The notes under the pieces were generated by a model that saw only the letters and a list, made by a program, of their open reading frames with translations, made no database searches and was not told where the DNA came from. Both the position numbers and the translations under genes were made by a program. A stretch of DNA of 64,000 nt from Alphaproteobacteria bacterium (lineage in GTDB: Bacteria > Pseudomonadota > Alphaproteobacteria > Rs-D84). The stretch lies in the NCBI GenBank assembly GCA_009783145.1, contig WRHR01000002.1, positions 34,834-98,833 on the forward strand, in the 5' to 3' direction. Shown in pieces: positions 5,315-61,973 of the stretch. Positions within the stretch are counted from its first letter, which is position 1. Each line of letters opens with the position of its first letter.

Positions 5315-5566
5315 ATGAAACTGTTCAAACGCATCTTGGGCGTATCTTTGGTTACTGTAGGAGTCCTAGCGGGCAAGTCGGCCCTAGGTGCATCTTGCAA
5401 CTCGGCTATAGGGAACGGGACAGAAATTAATGGCGATTGTCGTTACGAAAGTTGCGTTAATGCAACCGATATTTTATCCAATGGAAAATGTTATTGCAAG
5501 AAAAGCAATTGTGATCCATCTGCCCCCATCAGTTTGTTCAGGCTTCGGGCCGGTTCAAACTGCTAA
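5315..5566 (+). CDS. Small secreted Cys-rich peptide (signal peptide + 8 Cys), AT-rich
   Basis: 83-aa ORF; low-GC block 5300-6330. Confidence 0.3.
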   Translation: MKLFKRILGVSLVTVGVLAGKSALGASCNSAIGNGTEINGDCRYESCVNATDILSNGKCYCKKSNCDPSAPISLFRLRAGSNC

Positions 5567-6322
5567 TCCTGCCTTGCTGGCTTGCTTTATATATTTCTTG
5601 AGTCTTCTGACCAAACCTTTTCTTTTCGCCATTTTATAAGCGAAACCGCATGGTCCATTATCCATCCAAGTATTATTATATCTTTCTTCTTCCCTGTCTT
5701 TATTAAACTGTAGTAACAGCTTATCCGCGCAAGCCGGGGACATTTTTTCATCTATTATGTGCTCCGCACACTTTTTCATCTGTGCATAAATCCGTTCGGT
5801 TTGCATTTGCAAGTTTTTCAGCGTCTGCTTATCATATTTTTGGGGCTTTACAATCCATTCATCGCGAAGCACGGAATACGAGGCCGCGTTTTTTGCGATA
5901 TCCGGCACCTGACCGTCTTTACCAAAAGTTCCGTCATTATTTTTGATATAAAAATTATGAAAAATAGCAATTTCCAATTTCCGCCCGCAAATTTTCGGCT
6001 TGAAAAAGCGAATGAAATAGTCTTGCAGATACCAAACGAATTCGTTGGCGATTTCAGGGTTGCAGACTTTAAGTATTCCCGATATATCCACAAAGATATG
6101 GACGTCTATATCGCTGGACCAGGTGTAAAAATAATTCGCCGCGGAACCGATAAGAACTATGTCCATAACATCCTTGTCATGATCAAGCTTTACATGAAAC
6201 GATTCTTCAAAAAAACCCAAAAACTCCCAGGCCCACTTCAATATGCATTGCCTAGCGGGCTGTCGCAACTTTTGCGAAGGCAGCCAAATTGTTTTTAATA
6301 ATTGTCGCTTTTGGGCAAACAT
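5555..6322 (-). CDS. Nucleotidyltransferase-fold protein (Pol-beta superfamily; GS-x10-DID motif)
   Basis: IVLIGSAANYFYTWSSDIDVHIFVD = hG[GS]...DxD signature; start taken at MFAQKRQLL (6322), 7 bp after the upstream stop; AT-rich. Confidence 0.5.
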   Translation of the reverse strand: MFAQKRQLLKTIWLPSQKLRQPARQCILKWAWEFLGFFEESFHVKLDHDKDVMDIVLIGSAANYFYTWSSDIDVHIFVDISGILKVCNPEIANEFVWYLQDYFIRFFKPKICGRKLEIAIFHNFYIKNNDGTFGKDGQVPDIAKNAASYSVLRDEWIVKPQKYDKQTLKNLQMQTERIYAQMKKCAEHIIDEKMSPACADKLLLQFNKDREEERYNNTWMDNGPCGFAYKMAKRKGLVRRLKKYIKQASKAGLAV

Positions 6323-6329
6323 ATTCTGA

Positions 6330-9212
6330 TTACGGACATGACCCACCGGGTGTTTCCATTTCCAACTGAAAACATTTCGGCACACCATTCAGCTTGCCAG
6401 CCCGAGTTATATAGCTACATCTAAGTCCAGCCGCGACGCATCCTTGCGGACCTTCCAGGTATCCCGTGCAGCTTTCATCCATAAATACCCAAACATAGTC
6501 TTCTGAACTATACGTTGAATGGTGCTCGCCATCACCATCTGCATAAGTGAAGCCATATCCTATAAAACCACAGGCAGGATTTATTGCCGCCCCTATTGTA
6601 AAAAGCCCTGAATCGCATCCGAAGCCTTTTGCCGGACATTGCGAATTACGTTCAACACAAGCCGAATTCTGGCTGGAACCTTGTGGTACTCCGCATATAC
6701 TGCCCAGCCATGTCGTTTCGATTGAACAGCAATGGTTATTGTCTGAATTTGCAGAACAAGTGCAATTCTCAATAAGTTGGCCAATTTCGCATGGCGGATA
6801 AACGCAGGAATTGCCGTTCGACTCTTGCCCTGTCGGACAGCAATACTGATTAATACCGGAAGTGCTTACGTCGCCGGGGCAAGCGCAAGACCCATCCATA
6901 GGGAAGTTTGCCGTCGAGCACTTGGGCTTACAGCCGTCGTCCCATGCTTGCCCGGACGGACAGCAATGTCCATGACTGGCGTTGCTGCAAGAGCACTCGT
7001 CCGTAGCGGGTCCCGGGATCGGGCACGGAGGCTTGCCCGTAACGCAATTCATCCCGTTCCAAATCTGTCCGACACCGCAATCCGGCTGACAACGGTTGAG
7101 GTTAATGTTCCAAACTTCGCCCGGCTCGCAGACGCCGTACGGCAATTCGCAGCGTCCCGAGATTACCAGATACCCGGCTTCGCAGACGCAGCGCTCATTC
7201 ACATAGAATCTCTGCAGACCCGTGTTTGGATCCGTTTGATATATTTGCCCAGGCCTTGGAATCGGCGCACCGACCTGCAACGACACCCAAGATGAATAAT
7301 CCGGACACAGCATCGACTGATAGAAGATATCCGATATGCTTTCTATGCATGTGTTCGGCTCGTCTATCGGACAAGCAACTTGATCGTCCGAGAACACCGC
7401 ATAGCCGCAAGTCAGCGCAACGTTCCGACACGCTCCTTTCAGCACCGCGTACACATTGTTGATATTCGCGTTATTAGACCAAGAATTAATCTGCATAACC
7501 TGCTGCGAATAGCACGCCGAAATTTCCGCCATACAACTGGAAGCGTAATCCGATATGATCCTTTCCTGAGCGGCGCGGATGCTGACCATCGCCCGCTGGA
7601 TATAATTCACCAATATATTATTCTTGTTGTTATACTTGCCGCGGTCGTCGTAAGTAAATGCGCGGCACTTGTCCAAGACCGGGCGGCAAAGGCCGCTGTT
7701 CGCATTGTCCCCCATTCCTATCTTCGAAAGCAGATACCGCACGATGCACTTGCCGTTATTGTTTTGAGCGTCGCAGGCGGAATAGCCGGACATGCTCCAC
7801 GCGCTGTTGATAAAGTTCGCATCTATCAGCGAATTATCATAATTAACCATCATCTTTCTTATCATAGAAATATTCTGGCCCAGTATGACTTCGCCATTTT
7901 CGTCTATGAATCTTTTTGTCGGATCCAAGCATTTCGCCATGTCGGCGCCGCAAACCATGTCGTCCTTCATGCATTGCTCCAAGGCCCCGACGCAGCCCTT
8001 GGCGTCGTACGCATTGTGGTCCTGCAGCACGGCCAGACGCGCCTTTTGCAGCATCTGCGTTGCGCTGCGCACGTTGGATTTAAGGGTATCGTTCATCTTT
8101 TCCAATCCCTTTTCGTACGCGATGCAGTCCTTGTCTATCTCCACGTCATAGCGGCCCGTAACCTGCCCGGTGTTCGCGCCCTTGGCCTTGCATGCGTTTA
8201 TCACGGGCGCGCAGCGCTTTTGCGCCATTTTGAACAAGTCCGTCCCGCGAAGGTTCGCAAACGAGGTATTGTTGTTCAGGCTGAACATTTCCGTAAAGTC
8301 CGTATCCAAATCGAAGTCCAAATCCAAATCCAGTCCGAAGTTGTTGTTGCCTTCCGCCACAAAAGATTCTGGGGTGCGTATCAGCTTTTCGATATCCGAC
8401 AGCATTCTGCGCGATTGGGTTGTGTCGCGGGCGTTCTGCAGTTCCAGCTCCGCTTCGGTGGCGGACATAATCGCGCGGATTTCCGGAGCCGTCAGCCCGA
8501 CATAGCGGATGCGCTGCGCCACGTCGTTCAACTGGCTGTTCGCTTCCTTTACGGCGCTTTCCACTCGCGCGTAAGACGACAAGCGCCCCGAACAGGCGCA
8601 TCGCTTTTGATTCGCGTCGATTACCGCGCAGAACTGATCCATGCAATCCGTGTACTGCACCATGCACGAATCGGTCGCAGCGCTGGTTTCTTCCCAGTTA
8701 AGCGCAGGCGCAGCAGGCGCAGAGGTCGCCGCGCGCGCCGTCAGATTACGGTTTTCGGCGCTTATATTCGAACCGGTTTGAAGGTCCGTGCCGACAATTT
8801 TCGCCCGTCCTCCGACTTCCGCCGTAGTCGGGCGCAAGGTAACCCCCGCGCGCCGCATAGGCGCGGACGCGTTCAGGCTTGCGGCATCGGTGCGCGCGGC
8901 GCGCCCTACTTGACGCGCGGCTTCGGTTATCGGGCTGGCGCGTCCGGATGCGGCCGGGGCCGCGTTCGCAACTTGACGAGATACGACTGCGCCGCGAGGA
9001 GACGGTGTCGCAGCTTGGACGCCAACTGCCGCCGGCTGATTCGCCGTTACGCGCGATACAACAGCGCCTTGGGTTTCAGTCTGATTTTGCGCGGACGAAG
9101 CGGCTGTAACGCCAACCTGCTGGCCTGGAATCGCGCGCGACGGGGCAACGTCAGCGGCCAGCGCCATGCCAGCGCAAAGAGCAAAGAACAAAGAGCAAAG
9201 AGCAAGTCTTTT
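6330..9212 (-). CDS. Large secreted Cys-rich protein B (signal peptide, A/T/G/R-rich disordered region, conserved Cys core, C-terminal Cys-dense repeats)
   Basis: about 960 aa from MKRLALCSLFFALCAGMALA; paralogous to 9215-11356 (YTDCMDQFCAV...RCACSGRL vs YYTCMDEICTA...RCACAGRV). Confidence 0.6.
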   Translation of the reverse strand, partial: KRLALCSLFFALCAGMALAADVAPSRAIPGQQVGVTAASSAQNQTETQGAVVSRVTANQPAAVGVQAATPSPRGAVVSRQVANAAPAASGRASPITEAARQVGRAARTDAASLNASAPMRRAGVTLRPTTAEVGGRAKIVGTDLQTGSNISAENRNLTARAATSAPAAPALNWEETSAATDSCMVQYTDCMDQFCAVIDANQKRCACSGRLSSYARVESAVKEANSQLNDVAQRIRYVGLTAPEIRAIMSATEAELELQNARDTTQSRRMLSDIEKLIRTPESFVAEGNNNFGLDLDLDFDLDTDFTEMFSLNNNTSFANLRGTDLFKMAQKRCAPVINACKAKGANTGQVTGRYDVEIDKDCIAYEKGLEKMNDTLKSNVRSATQMLQKARLAVLQDHNAYDAKGCVGALEQCMKDDMVCGADMAKCLDPTKRFIDENGEVILGQNISMIRKMMVNYDNSLIDANFINSAWSMSGYSACDAQNNNGKCIVRYLLSKIGMGDNANSGLCRPVLDKCRAFTYDDRGKYNNKNNILVNYIQRAMVSIRAAQERIISDYASSCMAEISACYSQQVMQINSWSNNANINNVYAVLKGACRNVALTCGYAVFSDDQVACPIDEPNTCIESISDIFYQSMLCPDYSSWVSLQVGAPIPRPGQIYQTDPNTGLQRFYVNERCVCEAGYLVISGRCELPYGVCEPGEVWNINLNRCQPDCGVGQIWNGMNCVTGKPPCPIPGPATDECSCSNASHGHCCPSGQAWDDGCKPKCSTANFPMDGSCACPGDVSTSGINQYCCPTGQESNGNSCVYPPCEIGQLIENCTCSANSDNNHCCSIETTWLGSICGVPQGSSQNSACVERNSQCPAKGFGCDSGLFTIGAAINPACGFIGYGFTYADGDGEHHSTYSSEDYVWVFMDESCTGYLEGPQGCVAAGLRCSYITRAGKLNGVPKCFQLEMETPGGSCP

Positions 9213-9214
9213 CA

Positions 9215-11356
9215 TTACCATTCGTGCGGCACGCATTGCCCGCCTTGGGTTTTGTACCCGTTGAAGCATCTGCATCCGATTTTCACGCATCCGTTCGTAC
9301 CGCCCGAGGTGGAAGTAATGCCATCGGAAGAAATGCCTTCGCAGACCGCGCTATAATCCGAATACGGAGGACACATCACGACGCCGGGGCCCCAGCCCGT
9401 GCCGAAGTCGCGGATAGAGCCTTCGCCATGCACGCCCGGCGTTTCCCGCAGGCAGCTTTCGCGCAACGATGCCGAGCTTTGTCCGCCAACCGCCGTTATG
9501 ACGTTCAGGATTTCCGTCAGCCGGACCACATTGCGGCAGTTATTGATGCTCCAATCCTGCGAGTTATTGCAACTGCCGGTGCTGTCCGGAACATCGATAA
9601 TTCTGCCCGCGCCTTGGCCGCATACCATGGTGTCATAGCAGCTTGGGACCTCCGAGCTCTGCGAGCAATAATTCCTTACGCGCGCCACGGTCCAATTCGG
9701 GTTAGACCGGTTCTGCTGGTCAAAGCAGTCATATATTTCATTGACGCAGTTCTTATAGTTCTCCTTGGCAGTCGCCAATTCGTTCGCCGTGTTCGTCGTT
9801 TCTTCCTGCGCGAACTCCAGACGCTTTTGCTGCAAGTATTGCGTCGCGGCGATCTTCTGATACGCCATGTTCGTCGCTTGCTTTTTCAGCTCTTCCCCAT
9901 ACAGGTCGCAATCCGCGTTCGCGTCCAGCGCATACTTTTGCAGGATGGAACGGCGCGCGTCCGCAACCGGGCGGCGCAAGTTCGCGTACGGGTCGCCGCT
10001 GGACGTCGTATAGCCATAGCACGCCGCGCTGGTGTTGCCGGTATAAGAATTTCCGGGGTTAACGAAGTTCAAATCGGACCCGTCGTTGCTGACGGTGATA
10101 GTGCTGTTAAGATTATACGGCCCGGTGGTGCCGCCGTACGATCCGCACGCTTCATAGATTCCGTTAAAGCAGGAATCCAGAACTCGGTTGCAGACGTTGT
10201 TGTGCCCGTACTGGAACAGCTGGTATCCCCAAAGCCTCGCCAGAAAGTCCGCCGACGTCTCGGTATTGAACAGGTTTATATCCGCCATCTGGCCCACTAT
10301 ATCGCTGACGTTCATGAACGAGTTGAACAAGTTGCCATCGTTGCTGCCCGTGATAACATTGATTTGGTTTATGGTGCTGGCATAGGTCTGCAGGTTCGCC
10401 AAGATATCGGAATCCGCGCCGTTCAGAACGCTCATAAACTCATTGAAGCTGTTCAGCCCCAGCGCGCCGTTGGTGCAGTACGAAGGCGGAGTCGTCGCAT
10501 TGCATGTCTCGCTGTATCCGGCGGTCTGTCCCATCATATGGTTGTTGCACCAGTCGGTCATGTTCTGCCCTGTGGTTTTCGCATCGCGCCAGGATACGCA
10601 GTTCAGGGTCTTTTCCGCATCGGTAAGTTGGAACGCCTCGTTCATGCTCTTGCCCCTGGTCATAATCAGCATAGACAGCTGGCCCGAAACTTTCAGCAAG
10701 TCTTCTTTCGCCTGCTGCAGTTGAGCCTCGACATTGGAAAAGGTCTTTACGCGTCCGGCGCAGGCGCAGCGGCGCTGGCCCGGATTGCGCGCGGTGCAGA
10801 TTTCGTCCATGCAGGTGTAATAAGATTCCAAACAGTTGGCGTAAGCGTCCGCGGAAATCAAGCCCGTGGTCGGATCTATTATGTTGGAATAAGTTCCCGT
10901 ATACAGCCTGTTCTGCAACAAGGTGTTCGAAGCGCTGACTCCGGCGCTGGCGCGGATCGGCACATCTCTCAGCGATATGCGCGCCTGGCTCGCGCCCGCC
11001 GGCATTGTTGCGGTACGCGCGGTGACACTGCGCGCCGGACTGCCGGGACGCGTCACTACATTTCTGGGGGTCGCGGCTGAAGCGGCATTCCCGCGCTGCG
11101 CCACGCCGCGCGAGGTCTGGCCGGTTGCTGCCGTGCCTCGGCTGGTCCCGGTTGTCGCGCCGGCTTTCGCCGCCGCCGATGTCGTTTGGGCACGTCCGGT
11201 GCGATTGTTCGCGGCGCCCGAGCGCCCGGACTGCGCGGCCGCAGTGGTCTGCGCAGGCACTGTCTGGTCGTACCCGGCAATCGGATCACCCAACGCTGGC
11301 AACGCAAAAGCGGCGCAAAGCGCAAACGCAAAGTATACAAAAAACCGGCTTTTCAT
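9215..11356 (-). CDS. Large secreted Cys-rich protein A (paralog of B)
   Basis: 713 aa, signal peptide MKSRFFVYFAFALCAAFALPALG; 4-bp overlap with downstream paralog suggests an operon. Confidence 0.6.
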   Translation of the reverse strand: MKSRFFVYFAFALCAAFALPALGDPIAGYDQTVPAQTTAAAQSGRSGAANNRTGRAQTTSAAAKAGATTGTSRGTAATGQTSRGVAQRGNAASAATPRNVVTRPGSPARSVTARTATMPAGASQARISLRDVPIRASAGVSASNTLLQNRLYTGTYSNIIDPTTGLISADAYANCLESYYTCMDEICTARNPGQRRCACAGRVKTFSNVEAQLQQAKEDLLKVSGQLSMLIMTRGKSMNEAFQLTDAEKTLNCVSWRDAKTTGQNMTDWCNNHMMGQTAGYSETCNATTPPSYCTNGALGLNSFNEFMSVLNGADSDILANLQTYASTINQINVITGSNDGNLFNSFMNVSDIVGQMADINLFNTETSADFLARLWGYQLFQYGHNNVCNRVLDSCFNGIYEACGSYGGTTGPYNLNSTITVSNDGSDLNFVNPGNSYTGNTSAACYGYTTSSGDPYANLRRPVADARRSILQKYALDANADCDLYGEELKKQATNMAYQKIAATQYLQQKRLEFAQEETTNTANELATAKENYKNCVNEIYDCFDQQNRSNPNWTVARVRNYCSQSSEVPSCYDTMVCGQGAGRIIDVPDSTGSCNNSQDWSINNCRNVVRLTEILNVITAVGGQSSASLRESCLRETPGVHGEGSIRDFGTGWGPGVVMCPPYSDYSAVCEGISSDGITSTSGGTNGCVKIGCRCFNGYKTQGGQCVPHEW

Positions 11357-11421
11357 AAAAAACCCCTTCCCTATATTCGTTTTATTATATCATAAAAACT
11401 AACTGAGTGAAAGCGTTATCA

Positions 11422-11508
11422 ATGACTAATGACCAATGACTAATGTTTAATGACCAATATAAGCGCCCATTAGTCATTCGTCATTTATCATTGGTCATTA
11501 GTCATTAA
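11422..11508. repeat. Heptamer-array hairpin element, family B (second copy)
   Basis: caatgactaatgaccaatgactaatg ... cattagtcattcgtcatttatcattggtcattagtcatt. Confidence 0.8.
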
Positions 11509-11536
11509 AAAATCGCCGCGAATACGGCGATTTTAT
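11509..11536 (-). terminator. Intrinsic terminator (aatcgccg-cgaata-cggcgatt + U-tract on minus)
   Basis: Hairpin plus T-run directly after the stop of 11537-11965. Confidence 0.55.
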
Positions 11537-11965
11537 TTACTCTTCGTCATTCGTTCCGACGACCTCTTCAATTTCTATCTTGCTTGCTTTCCATTCGGAT
11601 TTTTTAGCCTCGCATTTCTCGCCTCTATCGCCTTCTTTGGCGTCGCAATTCCATTCTTTTTTCATGCCGTCTTTTTTATCTTTCCATTTGGCTTTTTCCC
11701 CGGCTTTTTTATCCTTCCATTCTTTCTTCTTGCCTTCTTTTTTAGCTTTCATTTCGGCTTTCTTGGCATCTTTCGTACCTTTGCATTCCGTCTTTATGCT
11801 TTCGCGTTCTTGGGTCGCCTCTTCCGTGCCGGTGTACGATTTATCGGTAATCTCTACTGTCGCCGGCTCCTTTTTCTTGCCCAGGAAATCAAACATGCCG
11901 GCACTTGCCGCCGATATACCGATAACCAAAGCCAACCCCGAAATCATAACTTTTCTCATAAGCAA
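11537..11965 (-). CDS. Small secreted Lys/Glu-rich repeat protein (EWKDKKAGEKAKWKDKKDGMKKEW)
   Basis: 142 aa, signal peptide, internal K/E repeats with spaced Trp and Cys. Confidence 0.4.
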   Translation of the reverse strand: MLMRKVMISGLALVIGISAASAGMFDFLGKKKEPATVEITDKSYTGTEEATQERESIKTECKGTKDAKKAEMKAKKEGKKKEWKDKKAGEKAKWKDKKDGMKKEWNCDAKEGDRGEKCEAKKSEWKASKIEIEEVVGTNDEE

Positions 11966-12024
11966 TCTCCTTTCTGCTGTTGCTGAAGCACTCTAGCATT
12001 AATCGCTAAAAATGAAAAGCTGTT

Positions 12025-12237
12025 TTATCTGCCAAAGCCGAGTTCTTTTAACTCTTTCTTATATTTTTGAAAGTTCGGGCATTTTGACTGGTCGCAGCCG
12101 GCGCTCCAGAACCCGCAAGTTTCGCAGGGATTCCGGGGGCGCTGTAAATGGGCTGAGCCCGGCGGGGGGCCAAATTCCGACATTCTCGTTTCTTTTGTTA
12201 GAAGCATCAAAGACTGTAATAAAAAATTTCGCGACAT
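12025..12237 (-). CDS. Possible small Cys-rich zinc-binding protein (CETCGFWSAGCDQSKCPNF)
   Basis: 70-aa ORF, CxxC...C...C spacing; weak. Confidence 0.2.
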   Translation of the reverse strand: MSRNFLLQSLMLLTKETRMSEFGPPPGSAHLQRPRNPCETCGFWSAGCDQSKCPNFQKYKKELKELGFGR

Positions 12238-12440
12238 GCATCAGGAAAGGATTCAACCGCCCATTTTGCCGATATTATGAACATTTTCATACAACTATAA
12301 AGAGATGGACGCAAAATAAACAACCAATATTAGTTAGGAATAATTGCGTACAATTGTAAGTTGTATCTTTCCAACAATTCGCGCGCAGGATTTGTTTTAG
12401 CCCTCAAAACATGGTACAATAGCATCAAAAGGAGGGGGCT

Positions 12441-12716
12441 ATGAGCTACTTAACAATAATCCGCAATATAAGAAACACATTATTCAAAGTATTTTTGATA
12501 AACATTTTGTTTGTTATCGTATTTTGGGTATTCGCGATGCTGGATCTGATGCAGTACTTTATATGGGCGCTGCCCGGCTGGACATTGGAAATGACCAATG
12601 ATTATATCATATGGCTGATCGGGCTTATAGAAGTTGTAAACCTTGTTCTGTTCCTGGCGCCGACCTTGGCGCTGAGCTGGGAAATCGGCCGCGTAAAGCC
12701 GAAGAAAAAGAAATAA
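12441..12716 (+). CDS. Small membrane protein (2-3 TM)
   Basis: 91 aa hydrophobic; aggagggggct SD 6 nt upstream of ATG. Confidence 0.35.
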   Translation: MSYLTIIRNIRNTLFKVFLINILFVIVFWVFAMLDLMQYFIWALPGWTLEMTNDYIIWLIGLIEVVNLVLFLAPTLALSWEIGRVKPKKKK

Positions 12717-12747
12717 AAATTCCGCCGGATGGCGGGATTTTTATTCT

Positions 12748-13158
12748 TTATTTTTTTCTTTCGCCATATTGTTCCATCAACTGTTTGTCTATAGTCCTCC
12801 TTGCCGCGCTTCGCAATGCAAGCCATAATTTATACTTGTCGCAGTCGCATTCTCTCGGATCGCAATTCCTGCAATTTTTATGAGAACCGCAGCCGATTTT
12901 ATCCTCAATATCCACATTGGAAATACGCTGAACGGCGCGGCACACAGTATCGGCAATTTTACTACCCTTCTTTCCGCCCGCTTCTTGGCCAAGATAAGCT
13001 TCATCAAGACGCTTTGCGTCATCGAAATAACCGGCAGGCATTGTTTCTGCCCATTCTGCATTTGTTAACTTATCCCCGTCGTTATTAAACATAGCATTTC
13101 TCTTTTTTCCCCGCCAAAAACTCTCTTCCGTTAAACCTGGGCTGATTGTACAATACAT
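12748..13158 (-). CDS. Hypothetical protein with C-terminal Cys cluster (CGSHKNCRNCDPRECDCDKY)
   Basis: 136-aa ORF. Confidence 0.3.
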   Translation of the reverse strand: MYCTISPGLTEESFWRGKKRNAMFNNDGDKLTNAEWAETMPAGYFDDAKRLDEAYLGQEAGGKKGSKIADTVCRAVQRISNVDIEDKIGCGSHKNCRNCDPRECDCDKYKLWLALRSAARRTIDKQLMEQYGERKK

Positions 13159-13180
13159 AAGAAGCTTGTCAAGTTTTATA

Positions 13181-13207
13181 AAAAAATCCCGCTATGAAAG
13201 CGGGATA
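13181..13207 (-). terminator. Native rrn operon intrinsic terminator (aucccgcuuucauagcgggau + U7 on minus strand)
   Basis: Classic stem plus U-tract; lies just beyond a degenerate copy (13225-13258) of the 23S-5S spacer hairpin. Confidence 0.6.
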
Positions 13208-13258
13208 ATATTGTCGGTTTTTATGCTTGTCCGCCGAAGCCTTGGCGAAAGCGGATTA

Positions 13259-13284
13259 ACAGAAATTGGTTCTGGCGACGACCT
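13259..13284. repeat. 26-bp direct repeat = duplicated 3' end of the 5S rRNA gene (right junction of the inserted cassette)
   Basis: acagaaattggttctggcgacgacct identical to 15868-15893. Confidence 0.9.
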
Positions 13285-13286
13285 GG

Positions 13287-13889
13287 TTATGCACTCATAA
13301 TACTATCCACCAATTTATGGATTCCAGCAAGCTTAGACGCCTCATACTCCTTGCCATCCGCATTGCTAAGCCCCCAGCTCCTGGCCGTATCTTGTGCCAA
13401 TTCATACCTTTTCATCATGTCCTCGAAGTTAAACTTTGCTCCATCACTATGGTCATACCCAGGCATTATTTCTTCTAGCTTCTTTTGGCACTGATGTCTT
13501 GTCGTTGGGATATCAGAAGGCGGAACATAATGTGATAACGCCCATGCTTCTATACACGGCGTATTCAATGCTATTTGTACTTTTGGCCTATTGGCAACCG
13601 AATTGCTTTCCTTTGCCTTTTGATATGCCAGTCTTACTCTTTCCGCTTTATCATCGTGATCAAACACGCACCAATATTCTACGCTTTTCTCTATTCGCTT
13701 ATCTTTGACAAAAGATACCATTCCCTCAACAATCTTCAATGGATCCGTATGCTTGTGGGGTTGAATTTGAAGCATACATCTTGGATTTAATTTACTAATC
13801 GCATCCAAATACCTTGGTTCGGAATTCACTCCCTCACAAATCACATATACTGTTTTGGTAATCAAAGGTCTACTTGGCGGGCATCTCAT
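13287..13889 (-). CDS. RloB-like protein (AbiLii-like component)
   Basis: N-terminal VYVICEGVNSEPRYL matches the RloB (vICEGxtEpnYf) signature; 20-bp overlap with the upstream ATPase gene. Confidence 0.6.
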   Translation of the reverse strand: MRCPPSRPLITKTVYVICEGVNSEPRYLDAISKLNPRCMLQIQPHKHTDPLKIVEGMVSFVKDKRIEKSVEYWCVFDHDDKAERVRLAYQKAKESNSVANRPKVQIALNTPCIEAWALSHYVPPSDIPTTRHQCQKKLEEIMPGYDHSDGAKFNFEDMMKRYELAQDTARSWGLSNADGKEYEASKLAGIHKLVDSIMSA

Positions 13890-15192
13890 CCGTATTCTCC
13901 GCAGATTTTACACCATCCAAAAAGAGATGCGCCCCTAAAAAGGGAATTGCACCATATACGCCATTCAGATACCCTCTTTCCACATCTTTGTCTTTGCGGG
14001 GGGCAAAATCTGCCAACGAATATAATTTCGAGGAATGGTCAAAATCTTTTTTTACAAACCAAATTTCATCATCACGCCATATATCCTGAATATCCATTAG
14101 CAGCGTGTTATGCAAAGATACCAATATTTGTGAACCATTTTTATTATCTGCCAATAATTGCTGCAATAAGCGCTTTACAATGAACGGATGCAGAGAGCTA
14201 TCAAACTCATCAATTATCAATAAAGCGCCTTTTTGATAATTTTTAAAGTTATATAACGCCAAAGCAAGATGTATTAGCCTATTCGTCCCGGTAGATAGTT
14301 CTGACAACTCAAAATACTCGTTCTCGACTTTGATTTTCAACTTCTCTCCTTTCGCCTTTCCAGATGCAACATCAAATGTAAAAACATAGTAGTCTTCACC
14401 ATCCATATATGATAGAGCATCGCCGAATTTTACAGGTGTCGTATATTTGGACGGCTTACTCTTTAACAATTCATTTGTTAAATCATCTGAAATTTTTACA
14501 AATTCCGCGCACTGAATACCAACATCGGATTCTTGCAATAACCTATTTAAAAATTCGGGAAAACTACTCTGTGTGTTATAAACATTATAGAATGACGACA
14601 TCTTGACCTTGGTCTTATCGTTGAAAAGCAATATGGCCCCAAAAAATTCATATAAATTTTCTATATGATCTCTATACGACCAATCAATGCTATTGAGGCC
14701 GTCAGTATCTAATTTGCGAATATAAGACATTCGATCCGCAACGGTTTTATTTTCTCTCGACCAATTTCCACCACATTCGACCTTGCCTTTTGAGCGACGA
14801 AATATCAATTCAGTTTGCGAGTCGTCTTTTATCAGTTCAAATTTCTCACTAACAAATTCCGCAGGTCTGATCTTCATTTCATACAAATACTTTTTGTTGC
14901 TCCATATAAAGCTGATTTTAAAAACCGATTCGTTATTTTCGGAAAATCTGAATTGGCTTGCCTTTACATTCAACGAAGAAATATCATCCATTTCTATCAA
15001 CAAACTTAACCAGCTCAATGAATTCATAAAATTTGATTTTCCGCTCGCATTTGCACCATAAATTACTGCTCCTGATAAGTATTCATCTGAGACAATATGG
15101 TCCAAGTGTTGTCTGCTGCCGGTTTTTTCAAAACTAATCTCTTGTTCGGAATCAAACGAGCCAAAATTTGACACGGAATATTTCACAAGCAT
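13870..15192 (-). CDS. AAA_21-type ATPase (AbiLi-like / RloA-like component)
   Basis: Walker A GANASGKSNFMNSL, Walker B LLIIDEFDSSLHP typical of AAA_21. Confidence 0.7.
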   Translation of the reverse strand: MLVKYSVSNFGSFDSEQEISFEKTGSRQHLDHIVSDEYLSGAVIYGANASGKSNFMNSLSWLSLLIEMDDISSLNVKASQFRFSENNESVFKISFIWSNKKYLYEMKIRPAEFVSEKFELIKDDSQTELIFRRSKGKVECGGNWSRENKTVADRMSYIRKLDTDGLNSIDWSYRDHIENLYEFFGAILLFNDKTKVKMSSFYNVYNTQSSFPEFLNRLLQESDVGIQCAEFVKISDDLTNELLKSKPSKYTTPVKFGDALSYMDGEDYYVFTFDVASGKAKGEKLKIKVENEYFELSELSTGTNRLIHLALALYNFKNYQKGALLIIDEFDSSLHPFIVKRLLQQLLADNKNGSQILVSLHNTLLMDIQDIWRDDEIWFVKKDFDHSSKLYSLADFAPRKDKDVERGYLNGVYGAIPFLGAHLFLDGVKSAENTDEMPAK

Positions 15193-15487
15193 GATTAACC
15201 CCTTTTATAAAAACTTCGTAAGTTTATCTTAATCGTTACACCAATGTCCGAAAAAATCAAGCAGAAAATACGATAAAGTCGCAAAAAAACAAACACTCTT
15301 GCTATTCTCGATTTTTTCGCATTCTTTATTTGACTTTTCCGTAATAGTGTTGTATAATAAAAAAGAATCACCCGAAATGGATGATTCTTCCAAAACCGGA
15401 ATCAACAAATGGCAACTCAATTTCGGCTTAAAGCACCCTGATTATGCCATAAGATGATTCTTAAAACAACAGGTATTTTGACCACAT

Positions 15488-15826
15488 GTGCAAAATACCG
15501 CATACCAAAAACAAAGGATTTATCTAATGGTATATGTAATTAATGCAACCGGCAATTATCCAAAAGATTGCCCGCCTCAATACGATTCTTGGATCGATTA
15601 CTGGATAAAAAAACGCGGCCTGATACCCGAGTGGTGTAGACACTGCAAAACGAACACGAAAGAATTAGATGGCGGCCATGTACGAATTGTAGAACAGGGC
15701 CCGGACGGAAAATGGTATTATAAAGGCGAAACCTTGTATATCGTCCCGATTTGTCGCGGATGCAATAATCCTAACAACCAAGAAATTTTCTCAGTATCAG
15801 AAACAGACTTGGTTCCTGTACCATAA
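15488..15826 (+). CDS. Small HNH-like (bba-Me) zinc-finger nuclease candidate
   Basis: CRHC ... LDGGHV ... N ... IVPICRGCN spacing resembles CxxC-H-N-CxxC HNH cores. Confidence 0.4.
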   Translation: MQNTAYQKQRIYLMVYVINATGNYPKDCPPQYDSWIDYWIKKRGLIPEWCRHCKTNTKELDGGHVRIVEQGPDGKWYYKGETLYIVPICRGCNNPNNQEIFSVSETDLVPVP

Positions 15827-15829
15827 AAA

Positions 15830-15853
15830 ACGCCCCAAAAGGGGCGTTTAATT
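15830..15853. terminator. Bidirectional intrinsic terminator (aaacgcccc-aaaa-ggggcgttt), now terminating 5S/rrn on minus
   Basis: Perfect hairpin with A-run one side and T-run the other. Confidence 0.65.
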
Positions 15854-15876
15854 CGGTTTTTATGTTTTACAGAAAT

Positions 15877-15995
15877 TGGTTCTGGCGACGACCTACTCTT
15901 CCGTGGCTTAAGCCAAAGTACCATTGGCGATGCAGGGTTTCCCTGTCTGGTTCGGGATGGAACAGAGGGTGGCTCCCGCTCAATAATCACCAGAA
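15877..15995 (-). rRNA. rrf: 5S ribosomal RNA
   Basis: ...CCAUCCCGAACCAGACAGGGAAACCCUGCAUCGCCAAUGGUACU...GGAAGAGUAGGUCGUCGCCAG; flanked by 16-nt inverted processing arms 15870-15885 / 15989-16004. Confidence 0.85.
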
Positions 15996-16155
15996 CCAAT
16001 TTCTGCGCTTGTCCGCCGTAGCTTTAGCGAAGGCGGAAACATCGTAATTCAAAATATCAAAGAATCCATTCTTTCAACATACTCTTCAAGCATTCTGTTT
16101 GATTTCACGGCGCGCGAGGCGTCATGAAATCAAACAAAGATAAAAAGTCGATCAT

Positions 16156-25613: not shown

Positions 25614-25738
25614 ATTAGCGATTAGCAATTATCAATTAGCGATTAAAAATGCAACAATATGAAATGTCCAATATACTGGACAATGTTATTACCAGTTCCC
25701 CAATTGCTAATCGCTAATTGCTAATCGCTAATTCCTTT
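25614..25738. repeat. Heptamer-array hairpin element, family A (second copy) with central TGTCCAATATACTGGACA
   Basis: ttagcgattagcaattatcaattagcgatt ... ttgctaatcgctaattgctaatcgctaatt; shared gcaacaata flank. Confidence 0.85.
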
Positions 25739-27984
25739 ACTGTTTTCGTCTTCGGGTCGTATACCTTTGGGGTGCCGCGATATCCCATCGTAGAATGATG
25801 GCTGGGGATTAGAAATTCCGGCAGAGGCGTGCTTTCGCCCATACTCCTGAACGCCTGCAGCCGCGGGTCGGAATACGCCGGAGTATAATCCGCTTCGATC
25901 GGCCTGTGGTACCAGCCTTGGAATATTACCAGCTCCTTTTTCGCGTCCAGCTTCAGAATATCCATAGTGCTGTAAAGCGGCTTTCTTTCCGTCGTCGTAG
26001 TGTCTTTTCCGTCCGCGCCCTTGGTCTTTTTCTCCTCCACTTTTTCGCCCATCATATCCGAAAATCTTTTGGCGGTATCGGGGTCATTCTGGCGGAAAAC
26101 GATTTTCGCCGCAGTCGTGGAAATTATGGTTGCCGCCGCGTCCGCGCCGTACTTTTCCTGAATCTGGTGAATATCCTGGCCGATGATAAGATAAGACACT
26201 TTCTGTCCTCGGCCGATATCGGGCCCTTGGATAATCGCCTGCATCTTTTGCATTTTGGGCATTTCGTCCAAGACGAACAAGGCGGGGAACGGCCCGACTT
26301 TTTGACCCTTATGCTCGTCGCCGGGCGCGTTCGCAATCAGAAACTTAGACATAAGCTCGATAAATATTGCCGTTATCGGGTTCAAGGCGTCGGCATCGAC
26401 CTGATTGATGGACAGGTATACCGTAACCGGCTTTATTTTTCCATCGCGCGGGTCGATCATACCGCGCAGATCCGCGAAATGAAAATCACTGTGGCTGGTG
26501 CGATTTCGCACGGCGGCGTTTCGGAAAATCCCCAGCCCCGCCAGAACCGTGGACAGGATGGAGCCGCGCTCCTTGTCCGGGGTATTCGCAATCTGCGTAA
26601 GCTCCAAAACCGCGCGATGGCTGTATCCGTACTGCAGCGCTTCGTTCACCGCGTTCAGGAACAAGTCCTTCATGGGATCGGCCATCATCACCATCTGGTC
26701 GCCTTGCTTGCGGCGGTTTTCTATTTCCTCGGCGATCAGCACCTGATTTTTGTTCAGCCAGTCCAGAATCATGGACAAAGACGCCTCTTTCCCGATCCAA
26801 TCGTCCGGAATCTTCGCCCAAGTCCCGATATGGACATAGTTCATGGCATTCAACTGCCCGTTGGCCAAGGCATGCAGCGCGGCATCCGCATTCGGGTCAT
26901 TCATAAGGGTATAATACTCGCCCAGCAATGCGGCGTCTTCGGAATCGAATTGTCCAGATTGCAGGCGCGCGTAAAAATACTCGTCCGCCTTGACCTTGTC
27001 TATCTTGGAAACCATAAAGTTGATAAGACCCGAAAGCGCCGCGCGGCCGGAAATCGTCCAATGGGGGTCGGCGGTAGAGCTTGTCTTGTCCGCAATAAGC
27101 GTGGAGCATATGGAGTCTATGTAAAGGTCGCGCTCTTCGGCCAGAAACGGCACATGCGAAGGCGATAAAGGGTTCCAGGACGGATAATAAATGCCCGCCG
27201 CCGGATCGTCCTGGCCCGCCCAGTTCATGATAAACACCGGGCCTACTTTCTCCGCGCGATACGCGGACGACTGCTGCTTTAATTCCGGCTTCGGGTCGTT
27301 GATAATCATCGAAACGCCGGTGCAATCAAAGATAGTGGGCAAAACGACGCCTTGGGTTTTACCGGTCCCTGGAGGAGCCAAACATAGGGCGGAAAAAGTC
27401 TCCTTCATCATCAGCGGCTTTTTCTTCCAATAGCCCAGAACCATCATAAAACCGTCAAGCAGGCCCATTTTTTTGACATCTTCGTCATTGGCCTTGCGCG
27501 AGGACTCTTCTTTCAGGGTGTCTTTGCCATGTGGGTTGAACTCTTTAAGCAGGGTATCGTCCGCCAGGATGAAAAACACGGCCAGCGGAAGCAGCGGGGC
27601 AAGCGTCGCAATATCGGTCTGGGTGACGGCTCTCATAAGCCAATCCGGGACTTCGGCCAGCACGGACAAGCCGCCGCTGCGCAGCAGGTTTCCGAAATAT
27701 ACGCTGATCCACTTGGCGGCGGCCGGCGACCAGCCATAGCGCCATATATGCTCGATCGGAAACGCCAGAATAAACGCCAGCGCGCAGGACAGCCAGATAA
27801 TAAGCTTGTACCGCATATTCCAGAACAAGCGCGCCAAGGGCGTCCTTTCGTGGTCCTTGTACACGGACGAGTCGAATATCTTCAGCCCCTTGCCTTTGCC
27901 CGAAAACGATAAAAAGTTGAACTTTTCTGCCATTAGGTTTATTATACCAAAAAAATAGGTAATTGATAATGCAAAACTTGCCAA
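25714..27984 (-). CDS. virD4: Type IV secretion coupling protein VirD4/TraG family
   Basis: Two N-terminal TM segments, Walker A LAPPGTGKTQGVVLPT, Walker B FVLDEMP, 756 aa. Confidence 0.8.
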   Translation of the reverse strand: MASFALSITYFFGIINLMAEKFNFLSFSGKGKGLKIFDSSVYKDHERTPLARLFWNMRYKLIIWLSCALAFILAFPIEHIWRYGWSPAAAKWISVYFGNLLRSGGLSVLAEVPDWLMRAVTQTDIATLAPLLPLAVFFILADDTLLKEFNPHGKDTLKEESSRKANDEDVKKMGLLDGFMMVLGYWKKKPLMMKETFSALCLAPPGTGKTQGVVLPTIFDCTGVSMIINDPKPELKQQSSAYRAEKVGPVFIMNWAGQDDPAAGIYYPSWNPLSPSHVPFLAEERDLYIDSICSTLIADKTSSTADPHWTISGRAALSGLINFMVSKIDKVKADEYFYARLQSGQFDSEDAALLGEYYTLMNDPNADAALHALANGQLNAMNYVHIGTWAKIPDDWIGKEASLSMILDWLNKNQVLIAEEIENRRKQGDQMVMMADPMKDLFLNAVNEALQYGYSHRAVLELTQIANTPDKERGSILSTVLAGLGIFRNAAVRNRTSHSDFHFADLRGMIDPRDGKIKPVTVYLSINQVDADALNPITAIFIELMSKFLIANAPGDEHKGQKVGPFPALFVLDEMPKMQKMQAIIQGPDIGRGQKVSYLIIGQDIHQIQEKYGADAAATIISTTAAKIVFRQNDPDTAKRFSDMMGEKVEEKKTKGADGKDTTTTERKPLYSTMDILKLDAKKELVIFQGWYHRPIEADYTPAYSDPRLQAFRSMGESTPLPEFLIPSHHSTMGYRGTPKVYDPKTKTVKELAISN

Positions 27985-55754: not shown

Positions 55755-56486
55755 TTATATCCCCAAAATCGTCCAAAGCAATCTCCGCGCGTCGATATAC
55801 GATTTATACAGCAATTCGCCGACCCTCTTCCACCGCGCCACCAGATATTTTTTCTTTTCGGCATAATTGATGCTGCTGGCCACGCCCTTGCGTTCCCAAG
55901 CGATGTTAGGGAATACCGACCGGCCGCGGACGCGGTACTTCCAATATTTTATGTACTCGTGGTCATGCGGGACGAACATAGGCAGCATTTTGGCGACATA
56001 TCTTTTCGCCGCATCGCGCTTTATCAGATAAGCCCCGGATTTGTTCTGATGAAACGCGTTCCTTACCAGATGATATTTTCCGCCAAGCAACTTGCGCATA
56101 CGGATTTTTCCGCCTCCATGTGTGCCGTATAGCTTCACGATATCCCAATCGTCCTTTGATATTATGTCGTCCAAGACCTGCTTGAAATCCACAGCGAACT
56201 CCATATCGTCTTCCAGTATCAGGCCGATGTCGGCGCCCGTTTCGACGAATTTCTCCAATGCCTCGTAATGCGAGATATAGCACCCGATTTCATTGTTCAT
56301 CACGATTCTGCCGTGGACGAAAGTATGAAGGCCGCGATTGACCTCCCTGCTTGTAAATGTCCGTATCTTGCCGTCGGTGCCCGAAACGCGGACAAAATCC
56401 AAGCCGACAGCTTTCAGGTTTTTTTCGGTTTGTTCCATGCGCTCGGGTGCGCGGTCCAAATTTATTACGAGCGTTTTCATTTTCAT
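55755..56486 (-). CDS. Glycosyltransferase family 25 (LPS core beta-glycosyltransferase-like)
   Basis: MKMKTLVINLDRAPERMEQTEKNL... typical GT25 N-terminus. Confidence 0.65.
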   Translation of the reverse strand: MKMKTLVINLDRAPERMEQTEKNLKAVGLDFVRVSGTDGKIRTFTSREVNRGLHTFVHGRIVMNNEIGCYISHYEALEKFVETGADIGLILEDDMEFAVDFKQVLDDIISKDDWDIVKLYGTHGGGKIRMRKLLGGKYHLVRNAFHQNKSGAYLIKRDAAKRYVAKMLPMFVPHDHEYIKYWKYRVRGRSVFPNIAWERKGVASSINYAEKKKYLVARWKRVGELLYKSYIDARRLLWTILGI

Positions 56487-57793
56487 TTCTTCTTTCCCTC
56501 CGCAAAGATTTTTCGCCAGTCGGAAACTTGCTTTTTCGTATTATCCCAAATCTTTTTCAGGTCGCCGCTGACTTGCTTGCCGAACGACTCGTCTATCTTT
56601 CCGCCCATGTCTTCCGCAATCTTGGTCGCTTTATCCGCCAGATATGCGACCAGGCAGCCGACTATCAGGACCGGCATAAAGCCTTCGGATTGCACTGTCG
56701 GAACCTTGTCTCCCAAATCAGTTGTAACCACTCCGCCCAGCAATGCCGCGCCTATGGCCGCAACGACCGCGAGTATAATGAAGTAAATCACCGCCTGGAT
56801 GAACCTTTTTATCTGGTCGGGCAGCGAGGTATATTTGAAAATTCCCGCAAAGGCCGTAAATATGGTGGCCGGGATGCCTTCCAAGTTTGTGGCCTTCTTG
56901 CCGCCGAAGCATTCCGTAATAGCGGTAAACGGAAGCAGCATTATCGCCATGAACAAGTCCACTATCACGCCCAGCGCCAGCAAGGCGAACTTCCAGATAT
57001 TTATCGTGAAAATCACGACAAAGACAGCGCCCGCGACGAAAGTCAGCGCGCTGTGGCCGATCCCAAACCACATCCACTTGAAGCCCGCCGCGACGCAGGT
57101 ATAAAAGAATCCCGATAGACGCGTCGGCAGGCATAATAAATCCGCCGTGTAACGCGATGATACTATCCCGCCGCTATTACCCACAAACTGGCGGATCGCA
57201 TCGCAAGTATCGGGCAGCTTTGTCCCCGCCGCGCCCGCGACGGAATCCAGTATCAGGTTCGACATATACGCGCCGGCGCTTATTATTGGCCCGAAGATCG
57301 TCATAAAAATCTGGCCCGGATTGTTGGACAGCACCCACAGCCAGACGGAAATCAACAGCGCTTTCTTTGCGACCTCTACGCCCAACTTTTTAACATCACC
57401 CTGGCCTTTTATGAGATTATAAGCCTCGAACATTATCCAGAACGCGAACAGGGCCACCAGCAGGGTTTGCACGAACTCGAACAGAGAACGCTGCAGAGCG
57501 TCGCTGATGCGGGACAGGGCGCCGATAAAGGCCTTTCCCACGCGCGCTTCTATAGGAACGTAATCTTTTACCAGCGCTTTCTGAAAATTGCCCTGGAACG
57601 AATCTATGTCCAGCGACAGATTGCTCATAAGAAGTTTCTGTTTTTGTTCGTCGAGCCAAGAGCCGGTATTCCCACCAGCGACGATTTCGCCGGCTATGGC
57701 TTCATTATTAATCACAGGAGACAGAACATCATCGGCAAAGGCATTGCCGATGCAAAGAATAAAGAATAAAGAATAAAGAATAAATTTTTTCAT
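56483..57793 (-). CDS. VirB6/TrbL-like type IV secretion inner-membrane protein, paralog D
   Basis: Signal peptide MKKFILYSLFFILCIGNAFA (repeat-encoded), multi-TM core, hydrophilic C-tail; start taken at MKKFIL. Confidence 0.55.
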   Translation of the reverse strand: MKKFILYSLFFILCIGNAFADDVLSPVINNEAIAGEIVAGGNTGSWLDEQKQKLLMSNLSLDIDSFQGNFQKALVKDYVPIEARVGKAFIGALSRISDALQRSLFEFVQTLLVALFAFWIMFEAYNLIKGQGDVKKLGVEVAKKALLISVWLWVLSNNPGQIFMTIFGPIISAGAYMSNLILDSVAGAAGTKLPDTCDAIRQFVGNSGGIVSSRYTADLLCLPTRLSGFFYTCVAAGFKWMWFGIGHSALTFVAGAVFVVIFTINIWKFALLALGVIVDLFMAIMLLPFTAITECFGGKKATNLEGIPATIFTAFAGIFKYTSLPDQIKRFIQAVIYFIILAVVAAIGAALLGGVVTTDLGDKVPTVQSEGFMPVLIVGCLVAYLADKATKIAEDMGGKIDESFGKQVSGDLKKIWDNTKKQVSDWRKIFAEGKKK

Positions 57794-57797
57794 TCTA

Positions 57798-59261: not shown

Positions 59262-59340
59262 GATTTACGATTTACGATTTACGATTTACGATTTAGGGAG
59301 TCAAATCGTAATTCGCAAATCGTAAATTATTTTTTCTCCT
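59262..59340. repeat. Family F heptamer-array hairpin filling the gap between virB6 paralogs C and B
   Basis: atgatttacgatttacgatttacgatttagggagtcaaatcgtaattcgcaaatcgtaaatt. Confidence 0.85.
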
Positions 59341-60586: not shown

Positions 60587-60665
60587 TTACGATTTACGAT
60601 TTACGATTTACGATTTACGATTTAAGGAGTCAAATCGCAAATCGTAATTCGTAAATATTAAATTA
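60587..60665. repeat. Family F heptamer-array hairpin filling the gap between paralogs B and A
   Basis: (tttacga)x5-tttaaggagtcaa-(atcgcaa)(atcgtaa)... Confidence 0.85.
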
Positions 60666-61946: not shown

Positions 61947-61973
61947 TCAAATTATGATATAATTGATAAAAAC

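Follow-up and report, generated by a model that had tools for sequence, protein, structure and literature searches.

The subject of this study is a pair of adjacent genes, here called A and B, in a 64,000-nt stretch of DNA from an alphaproteobacterium of the lineage Rs-D84 (assembly GCA_009783145.1, contig WRHR01000002.1, forward-strand positions 34,834 to 98,833; hereafter the window). Judged from their sequences, the two products belong to a new and large family of Sec-exported helical proteins built on a framework of Cys residues, and this family is apparently restricted to the Rs-D84 (Enterousia-type) Alphaproteobacteria. In the NCBI annotation they are neighbouring hypothetical proteins of an Alphaproteobacteria bacterium metagenome-assembled genome (MAG), and the same contig, encoding identical A and B proteins, was found in ENA and Logan from an independent assembly. 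The family, provisionally named the Rs-D84 'CMD-CxC' exported proteins, is defined by i) a signal peptide, ii) an Arg-rich low-complexity segment of 130–310 aa, iii) a five-Cys motif followed by a heptad-patterned helix, and iv) a Cys-stapled helical core. All of these features are present in both A and B.

Homologues detected at E ≤ 1e-3 number 1203 for A and 993 for B, and all are unnamed or annotated as 'hypothetical'. Scans of the full-length A and B proteins against Pfam and NCBIfam gave no match even at E ≤ 1, PDB profile searches with A, B and their shared domain (see below) returned nothing significant, and fold searches returned non-specific results only. An earlier reading of the window, made from the sequence alone and referred to here as the sequence-only reading, had placed both proteins in an unknown family with no recognisable adhesin, autotransporter or repeat domain, and these searches agree with it. 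The core that A and B share with their homologues is not covered by Pfam in any of them, one B relative (P0175) having an Ephrin_rec_like domain (PF07699). A hidden Markov model (HMM) of the shared domain, searched exhaustively against 1.84 billion representative proteins, retrieved 473 clusters (50% identity), of which 318 reached E ≤ 1e-10. Complete proteins are ~650–2338 aa long, and the domain typically lies at a distance of 130–310 residues from their N-terminus. The 149 best representatives include 24 A-like and 110 B-like proteins, and a third subgroup, with a distinct EVAPxYY N-terminus, falls within the B-like set. The few cluster members with a source name are all from MAGs of Alphaproteobacteria, Rickettsiales or Enterousia. 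A word-index search with the shared domain gave only eight matches, of which six are short fragments of family members and two are short proteins that appear to be unrelated.

In a scan of one genome per GTDB species, a relative of A was found in 275 genomes, mostly titled Alphaproteobacteria, Rickettsiales bacterium or Candidatus Enterousia and derived from the guts of termites, rodents, ruminants, horses, chickens and humans. A few MAG records carry other labels (Muribaculaceae, and one Bacteroides fragilis), which look like mislabelling by the submitters. Candidatus Enterousia belongs to the GTDB order Rs-D84, whose members have genomes of ~0.75–1.0 Mb without most biosynthetic pathways, respiration and standard transporters; they have been proposed to depend on partner cells (PMC12306168). 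The gene content of the window, which includes dnaX, OmpA, Skp, LpxD, YidC, MraY-FtsW-MurG, AcrB/TolC, ComEC and a VirD4-type coupling protein, fits a reduced genome of this type.

A and B have the same four-part layout: a signal peptide, a cationic Arg/Ser/Thr/Ala-rich segment of 130–150 aa, a helical core, and a Cys-dense tail (Table 1). The signal peptides (MKSRFFVYFAFALCAAFALPALG preceding DP in A, and MKRLALCSLFFALCAGMALA preceding AD in B) were noted in the sequence-only reading, are of the typical Sec type and constitute the sole hydrophobic stretch of each protein; both proteins are thus predicted to be exported by the Sec pathway. The predicted mature N-termini are conserved, with DPIA in family A and D-x4-SRxIP in family B. 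The segment that follows, previously described as disordered and rich in Ala, Thr, Gly, Arg and Ser, is indeed modelled by AlphaFold2 (AF2) at a pLDDT below 50 in both proteins, and the cationic segments of A and B contain 14 Arg vs. 1 Lys. Six Arg residues of this segment (R83, R88, R103, R109, R114 and R126) are invariant in family A. In B, a linear block at aa 111–165 (RRAG-TLRP-TAEVGGRA...TGSN) shows 63% mean identity among homologues, compared with 25% before the block. Many B homologues (e.g. P0231/P0235) are identical in core and tail yet fall into separate 90%-identity clusters. The difference within such pairs must consequently lie in the signal peptide or in the low-complexity segment at the N-terminus, which suggests that this segment may vary in length or sequence between strains.

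The module common to A and B contains five invariant Cys residues, arranged as C-x6-CMD-x2-C-x9-C-x-C, followed by a helix with clean 3-4 hydrophobic (heptad) spacing. The two copies of the motif (A, YYTCMDEICTARNPGQRRCACAGR; B, YTDCMDQFCAVIDANQKRCACSGR) are the only ones in the window and correspond to the conserved YxxCMDxxC-type motif that had been noticed before. BLASTP aligns A with B at 28% identity (E 4e-15), and profile-profile comparison of the shared domains by hhalign gives 98% probability and an E value of 7.6e-14 over 108 columns. Significant likeness is confined to this module of ~100 residues. Weaker collinear matches occur along the core (C389-x6-C396 of A with C335-x6-C342 of B, C483 with C364, and C537-x6-C544 with C408-x6-C415) and suggest that the helical cores may be related as well. 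The earlier claim that A and B are paralogous is upheld by the shared domain and by these core matches.

The AF2 models of both proteins are helical. The core of A is modelled with moderate confidence and includes a ~90-residue helix at aa 461–551, B reaches a pLDDT of ~90 over aa 400–730, and the helix of the shared domain is packed within the chain in the monomer models. In the family alignments, 21 Cys residues of A and 30 of B are invariant or nearly so, and mean identity of the cores across homologues is 49–72%. Between aa 173 and 640 of B, C-x6-C is the spacing of 8 of the 22 neighbouring Cys pairs, a number reached in none of 5000 shuffles. Such an excess is the pattern expected if disulfides staple neighbouring helices, and the disulfide pairing proposed for the A and B cores is deduced from the Cys spacing. 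The eight C-x6-C pairs of the B core resemble the helical hairpins of the twin-CX9C/CX3C (CHCH-type) proteins of the mitochondrial intermembrane space, which also have Cys pairs on one helix face, an arrangement that agrees with disulfides stapling antiparallel helices. However, the spacing (x6 vs. x9 or x3), size and context are far apart, and no homology is involved.

Conservation peaks in the shared domain and core, and falls in the tails to 5–6% identity and 19–32% column occupancy. The tails are Cys-dense as claimed and consist of small beta-hairpin modules rich in Cys: the C-terminal 58 aa of A contain 6 Cys, and the C-terminal 321 aa of B contain 34. That of A closes with one C-x2-G-x8-C hairpin motif (CFNGYKTQGGQC). 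That of B contains some eight matches to C-x(1-2)-G-x(5-10)-C as well as three C-x-C...CC units, including HCCPSGQ and YCCPTGQ, in which the previously reported HCCPSGQ/CCPTGQ-type repeats are recovered. Among 116 homologues the B tail is 40 to 323 residues long, the tail of the window's B being the longest, and in one pair of B homologues the cores are 93% identical while the tails, of unequal lengths, are only 28% identical. Long relatives have tails extended by 500–1700 residues, and Flg_new (Listeria-Bacteroides/InlB B-repeat) was detected in the tails of five of the long relatives scanned (P0264, P0346, P0277, P0257 and P0262). The repeats of the B tail (C-x(1-2)-G-x(5-10)-C and C-x-C...CC) resemble Ephrin_rec_like/GCC2_GCC3, TNFR-like and EGF-like hairpins, and 3 of 44 B homologues match PF07699 or TNFR-like models (best E 6e-11). 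In this family, however, such repeats form a variable appendage and not the core. When searched in isolation, the window's own A and B tails had no usable Pfam match, and that of B had none even at E ≤ 10, hence it was not assigned to PF07699.

We tentatively interpret A and B as disulfide-stapled, envelope-anchored surface fibrils or adhesins, a reading that we favour while regarding it as far from secure. The Arg-rich cationic N-terminal segment would tether the protein to the cell's own anionic envelope (lipopolysaccharide or peptidoglycan), the disulfide-stapled helical core would form a rigid and possibly oligomeric stalk, and the variable tail would be the exposed ligand-binding end, contacting a partner cell or the host. 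With such fibrils the bacterium would adhere to the gut surface or to the cells of a partner. A surface location is suggested because a conserved base is combined with a variable tip and because the tails of relatives contain Flg_new and ephrin-receptor-like surface modules; the adhesin-like variability of the tails also makes an interaction with the host plausible. The retention of the A and B genes in strongly reduced genomes, beside rplU-rpmA, dnaX and PagL and not in mobile regions, supports the adhesin interpretation. Trimeric autotransporter adhesins and InlB/Flg_new surface proteins likewise combine a conserved proximal part with a fast-diversifying distal part, the long A/B relatives have Flg_new repeats in the tail like the InlB/Flg_new proteins, and the stalk predicted for A and B is elongated and helical or coiled-coil-like as in modular adhesins. 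In contrast to such adhesins, A and B lack a beta-barrel translocator, LPXTG, lipobox or other known anchor, and their core would be stapled by many disulfides. Their polarity is also the reverse of that of autotransporters, the conserved end being N-terminal.

Several points weigh against a surface adhesin. Pfam, AF2 and hydrophobicity revealed no device in A or B for crossing the outer membrane or anchoring in it (no beta-barrel, conserved lipobox or transmembrane segment), and the main weakness is that the adhesin interpretation leaves unexplained how the proteins would cross or attach to this membrane. By default, a Sec substrate stays in the periplasm. The 80 related loci yielded no ligand, no partner gene and no functional neighbour that is conserved, and Pfam detected no adhesin module in the tail of the window's B. 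For the Arg-rich segment and the tail, the proposed roles are based solely on composition and rate of evolution. Overall, the quality of the AF2 models is moderate (mean pLDDT 60), and the bacterium is a strict anaerobe, in which the disulfides of A and B are putative.

The main alternative, to which we give a lesser though still appreciable likelihood, is that A and B form a disulfide-cross-linked envelope scaffold in the periplasm or at the inner leaflet, or a tether between the outer membrane and peptidoglycan. Its models are the chlamydial Cys-rich envelope proteins, tethers of the Braun lipoprotein type and periplasmic filaments, and the Arg-rich N-terminus would bind, or be linked to, peptidoglycan. 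A Sec signal unaccompanied by any recognisable feature for outer-membrane translocation or anchoring, the conserved mature N-termini, the long helices and heptad pattern of the cores, and the order-wide occurrence of the family amid housekeeping and envelope genes (PagL, OmpA, Skp, LpxD, PBP1A and MraY-FtsW-MurG) are all consistent with a scaffold. However, tails that evolve fast, vary in length and, in relatives, contain Flg_new and ephrin-receptor-like modules, which typify exposed surface proteins, are hard to square with a buried position, and no sequence or fold similarity to OmcB, Lpp or a known periplasmic filament protein was found.

OmcB, a Cys-rich protein of the chlamydial outer membrane complex, offers several parallels. 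Like A and B, it is a Sec-exported protein of 60–100 kDa with ~4–6% Cys from host-dependent bacteria with reduced genomes, and its conserved, Cys-rich body is preceded by a basic segment at the N-terminus. Disulfide cross-linking of OmcB is thought to confer envelope rigidity or adhesion, and a similar role through disulfides is supposed for A and B. The resemblance does not extend to sequence or fold, since the body of OmcB is beta-rich whereas the A and B models are alpha-helical, and A and B additionally have hypervariable modular tails.

The best PDB match of the shared-domain profile, to the coiled-coil trimerisation domain of the cartilage matrix protein matrilin-1 (1aq5; 34 aa), was not significant (E 0.28). 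In matrilin-1, a CxC pair makes interchain disulfides at the base of the coiled coil, and in the A/B shared domain, too, C-x-C lies directly upstream of a helix with regular 3-4 heptad spacing. The match is short, and the AF2 monomers of A and B pack this helix within the chain; matrilin-1 is retained only as a suggestive lead for possible oligomerisation. A more elaborate version of the adhesin interpretation, which we regard as speculative and improbable in its full form, is that A, B and their Rs-D84 paralogues assemble through the CxC-plus-heptad domain and interchain disulfides into homo- or hetero-oligomeric spikes. These would constitute a new attachment apparatus or cell coat, with an unrecognised export route, an Arg-rich tether, and swappable Cys-knot/Flg_new tips recognising partner cells.

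It is still less probable that A and B are effectors or toxins that are released after Sec export, for example by a type IV secretion system (as is pertussis toxin) or in vesicles, and that they perhaps form a two-component helical pore. The tandem genes for two paralogous helical proteins, the gene for a VirD4-type coupling protein in the window, and the prediction that this lineage draws metabolites from other cells would all suit such a function. But neither protein has an amphipathic or hydrophobic segment for membrane insertion, the tandem arrangement is not conserved, and the Arg-rich N-terminal segment, conserved throughout the family, is atypical for toxins.

A number of known systems were considered individually and rejected: 1) Classical autotransporters (type Va), as no Pfam match to PF03797 was obtained at E ≤ 1, AF2 predicts no beta-barrel, and the C-termini are Cys-rich tails. 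2) Trimeric autotransporter adhesins (type Vc), as a YadA-like anchor and head, neck or stalk repeats had no matches. 3) TraN (F_T4SS_TraN), as neither A nor B gave a Pfam match at E ≤ 1 and no conjugation genes are adjacent. 4) OmcB/OmcA, as Chlam_OMP6 and DUF11 of Pfam were not matched and the predicted structure is helical, not beta-rich. 5) Lipoproteins, as the h-regions of A and B do contain FALC, but neither family consensus retains its Cys. 6) Two-component helical pore-forming toxins of the ClyA/Hbl/YaxAB type, as both fold support and a hydrophobic segment are missing. 7) Class I fusion proteins, for which the C-x6-C spacing offers an analogy, as there is neither a fusion peptide nor a transmembrane anchor.

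There is little to recommend, and we consider very improbable, the view that A and B are divergent members of a known family (an autotransporter passenger, a TraN-type protein, OmcB or a eukaryote-like Cys-rich receptor) concealed by sequence divergence. The tails of some relatives do match Ephrin_rec_like or TNFR-like models, and the CxC-plus-helix segment matches matrilin-1 weakly. However, the Ephrin_rec_like or TNFR-like modules occur only in the variable tails of few relatives and are absent from the conserved core, Pfam and NCBIfam remain silent for both full proteins, and the PDB profile searches were empty and the fold searches non-specific.

Both genes were found on the minus strand at the coordinates given in the sequence-only reading, whose term 'giant' is overstated for proteins of 713 and 961 aa. 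The longest open reading frame (ORF) for B, with a start at 9290, would encode 986 aa, and the NCBI call is the 961-aa form. The DNA of A and B was aligned with that of orthologues from four related genomes (L005–L008), and substitutions were sorted by codon position. Relative to L005, the counts at the first, second and third positions of the minus-strand codons are 102/92/269 for A and 93/64/250 for B. Since substitutions concentrate at the third position of the minus-strand frames, the long antisense ORFs of the plus strand (658 and 618 aa) are spurious, as had been supposed, and are by-products of GC- and Arg/Ala-rich coding sequence; A and B themselves are, on this evidence, intact and under purifying selection. 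That the two frames are decaying pseudogenes or spurious, as the GC-rich, low-complexity N-terminal regions and the long opposite-strand ORFs might suggest, has a negligible chance of being right and is refuted by the uninterrupted 713 and 961 codons, the third-position excess, and the ~1000 full-length, intact homologues of each protein with common invariant Cys residues and motifs.

The junction between A and B reads ...CAC GAA TGG TAA TG AAA AGA, so that the TAA of A has one base in common with the ATG of the 961-aa form of B (TAATG). The overlap is therefore 1 bp and not the 4 bp claimed earlier; alternative in-frame ATGs upstream would give overlaps of 7 or 22 bp. A good ribosome-binding site, GGAAGGGG, lies immediately 5' of the ATG of A, and a strong promoter-like site, called by consensus match alone, is found downstream of the terminator that ends the preceding small gene. 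A and B appear in this strain to be co-transcribed from this one promoter-like site and may be translationally coupled via TAATG. Regarding the operon claimed by the sequence-only reading, the tight tandem and the promoter-like site upstream of A speak for it within the window, whereas adjacency is not conserved beyond the window's own clade: the tight A-B tandem followed by dnaX was found only in the nearest relatives (L005–L009). In most relatives, rplU-rpmA or more separates the two genes or B is located elsewhere; of the 80 related loci, 35 have a B homologue no more than 6 kb from A.

The usual order in Enterousia-type genomes is PagL - A - rplU - rpmA - B - dnaQ-like - uvrD. L003, L004 and L086, together with about 40 of the 80 loci, have rplU-rpmA between the A and B homologues, a position that could mean high constitutive expression. 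The neighbours conserved over the 80 loci are housekeeping genes (rplU, rpmA, PPDK, DnaQ-like, Sua5, VIT1 and PagL), and no conserved functional partner or secretion gene travels with A and B in these loci. The downstream ORF that had been called a nucleotidyltransferase gene does follow B, and its product has a GSAANYFYTWSSDIDVHIFVD motif (G-S-x(n)-D-x-D), but its identity rests on sub-threshold matches to Pfam Polbeta/NTP_transf_2 (E 0.03–0.07). It occurs only in contigs identical to the window and is therefore a strain-specific insertion rather than part of the unit. It was rejected as an operon partner of A and B, the relatives having dnaX directly after the pair. On the whole, what the sequence-only reading observed holds, except for the length of the overlap, the term 'giant' and the status of the nucleotidyltransferase gene, and its interpretation is reasonable though demonstrable only in part.

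Table 1. Coordinates of the A–B gene pair, its parts and adjacent features in the window
Feature	Position	Strand	Remarks
Gene A	9215..11356	minus	713 aa, 29 Cys; predicted exported Cys-rich helical protein; NCBI FWF97_00890
Gene B	6330..9215	minus	961 aa from MKRL, 59 Cys; predicted exported; NCBI FWF97_00885
A signal peptide, aa 1-23	11288..11356	minus	only hydrophobic window in A
A cationic low-complexity Arg/Ser/Thr/Ala/Gly-rich segment, aa 24-152	10901..11287	minus	net charge +12; pLDDT <50
A shared domain, aa 160-262	10571..10879	minus	invariant C175, C182, C187, C197, C199 and heptad-patterned helix
A conserved helical disulfide-rich core, aa 263-655	9392..10570	minus	49-54% mean identity to homologues; disulfides putative
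A variable tail, aa 656-713	9218..9391	minus	6 Cys; 6% identity, 32% occupancy in homologues
B signal peptide, aa 1-20	9156..9215	minus	hydrophobicity, sequence
B cationic low-complexity segment, aa 21-172	8700..9155	minus	net charge +8; pLDDT <50
B shared domain, aa 173-270	8406..8699	minus	invariant C184, C191, C196, C206, C208 and heptad helix; homologous to A aa 160-262
B conserved helical core, aa 271-640	7296..8405	minus	seven of the eight C-x6-C spacings; the eighth, C184-C191, in shared domain
B beta-hairpin and Cys-knot tail, aa 641-961	6333..7295	minus	321 residues, 34 Cys; motif counts, homologue comparison
B tail C-x-C...CC unit, aa 741-762	6930-6995	minus	the three units include HCCPSGQ and YCCPTGQ
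B tail C-x-C...CC unit, aa 777-804	6804-6887	minus	
B tail C-x-C...CC unit, aa 818-841	6693-6764	minus	
Promoter-like site, TTCACT-16-TATAAT with extended TG	11384..11411	minus	upstream of A; 10/12 consensus matches
Nucleotidyltransferase-like ORF	5555..6322 (255-aa call; ORF 5555-6388)	minus	begins 7 bp after B

Other features of the window are worth noting: 1) An intergenic palindromic element, made up of tandem 7-nt units (AATGACN) in inverted orientation, lies at 11416-11511, between the upstream terminator and the promoter-like site of A, and recurs at 1038-1115 and 12590-12602. Its 43-nt arms are 81% complementary, AATGACNAATGAC has 14 matches at ≤1 mismatch compared with 0.41 expected, and it looks like a repetitive extragenic palindromic (REP) or miniature inverted-repeat transposable element (MITE). 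2) Just upstream of A (11537-11965, minus strand), a 142-aa Lys/Glu-rich protein with a signal peptide, K-K-E-W-K repeats and a few Cys is encoded. Its only match, to TIGR04420, is weak (E 0.005) and far below the cutoff, and a small secreted protein occupies a similar place in about ten related loci. 3) The products of five clustered genes at 56483-63368 are membrane or secreted proteins (~420-490 aa) that lack a Pfam match, four of them being distant paralogues of one another. The cluster has counterparts with 44-54% identity in the Enterousia-type loci L085 and L086, where it lies ~3 kb from a B homologue and beside uvrD, and given the VirD4 gene at 25714-27984 it may be VirB6/TrbL-like. 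4) A low-GC island at 12000-16000 (GC 0.37-0.43 vs. ~0.50 elsewhere) contains a minus-strand gene pair (13287-13889 and 13870-15192) encoding an AAA_15/SMC_N ATPase and an RloB-domain protein, probably an acquired defence or abortive-infection module.

The concept behind A and B, that of Cys-rich exported envelope or adhesin proteins, is familiar, but the family itself is undescribed and is absent from Pfam, NCBIfam and PDB; defining it would fill an annotation gap for more than 1000 proteins. Members of Rs-D84/Enterousia have a wide distribution in the guts of animals and humans, and they presumably live at the expense of other cells. Together the two genes occupy ~5 kb, roughly 0.5% of such a genome, and they are kept across the order. 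Because of this order-wide retention, the invariant Cys frameworks and the fast-evolving adhesin-like tips, A and B are prime candidates for the surface or envelope machinery of a dependent lifestyle, and they would offer concrete targets in the search for the partner cell. Were the proteins periplasmic, they would instead indicate that an anaerobic alphaproteobacterium has an envelope of an unusual, disulfide-cross-linked kind. Oligomeric spikes, if they exist, would be the molecular basis on which a widespread lineage of the gut lives as an epibiont or parasite. A and B represent a genuine orphan family that is probably relevant to the biology of this uncultured and widespread group of gut bacteria.

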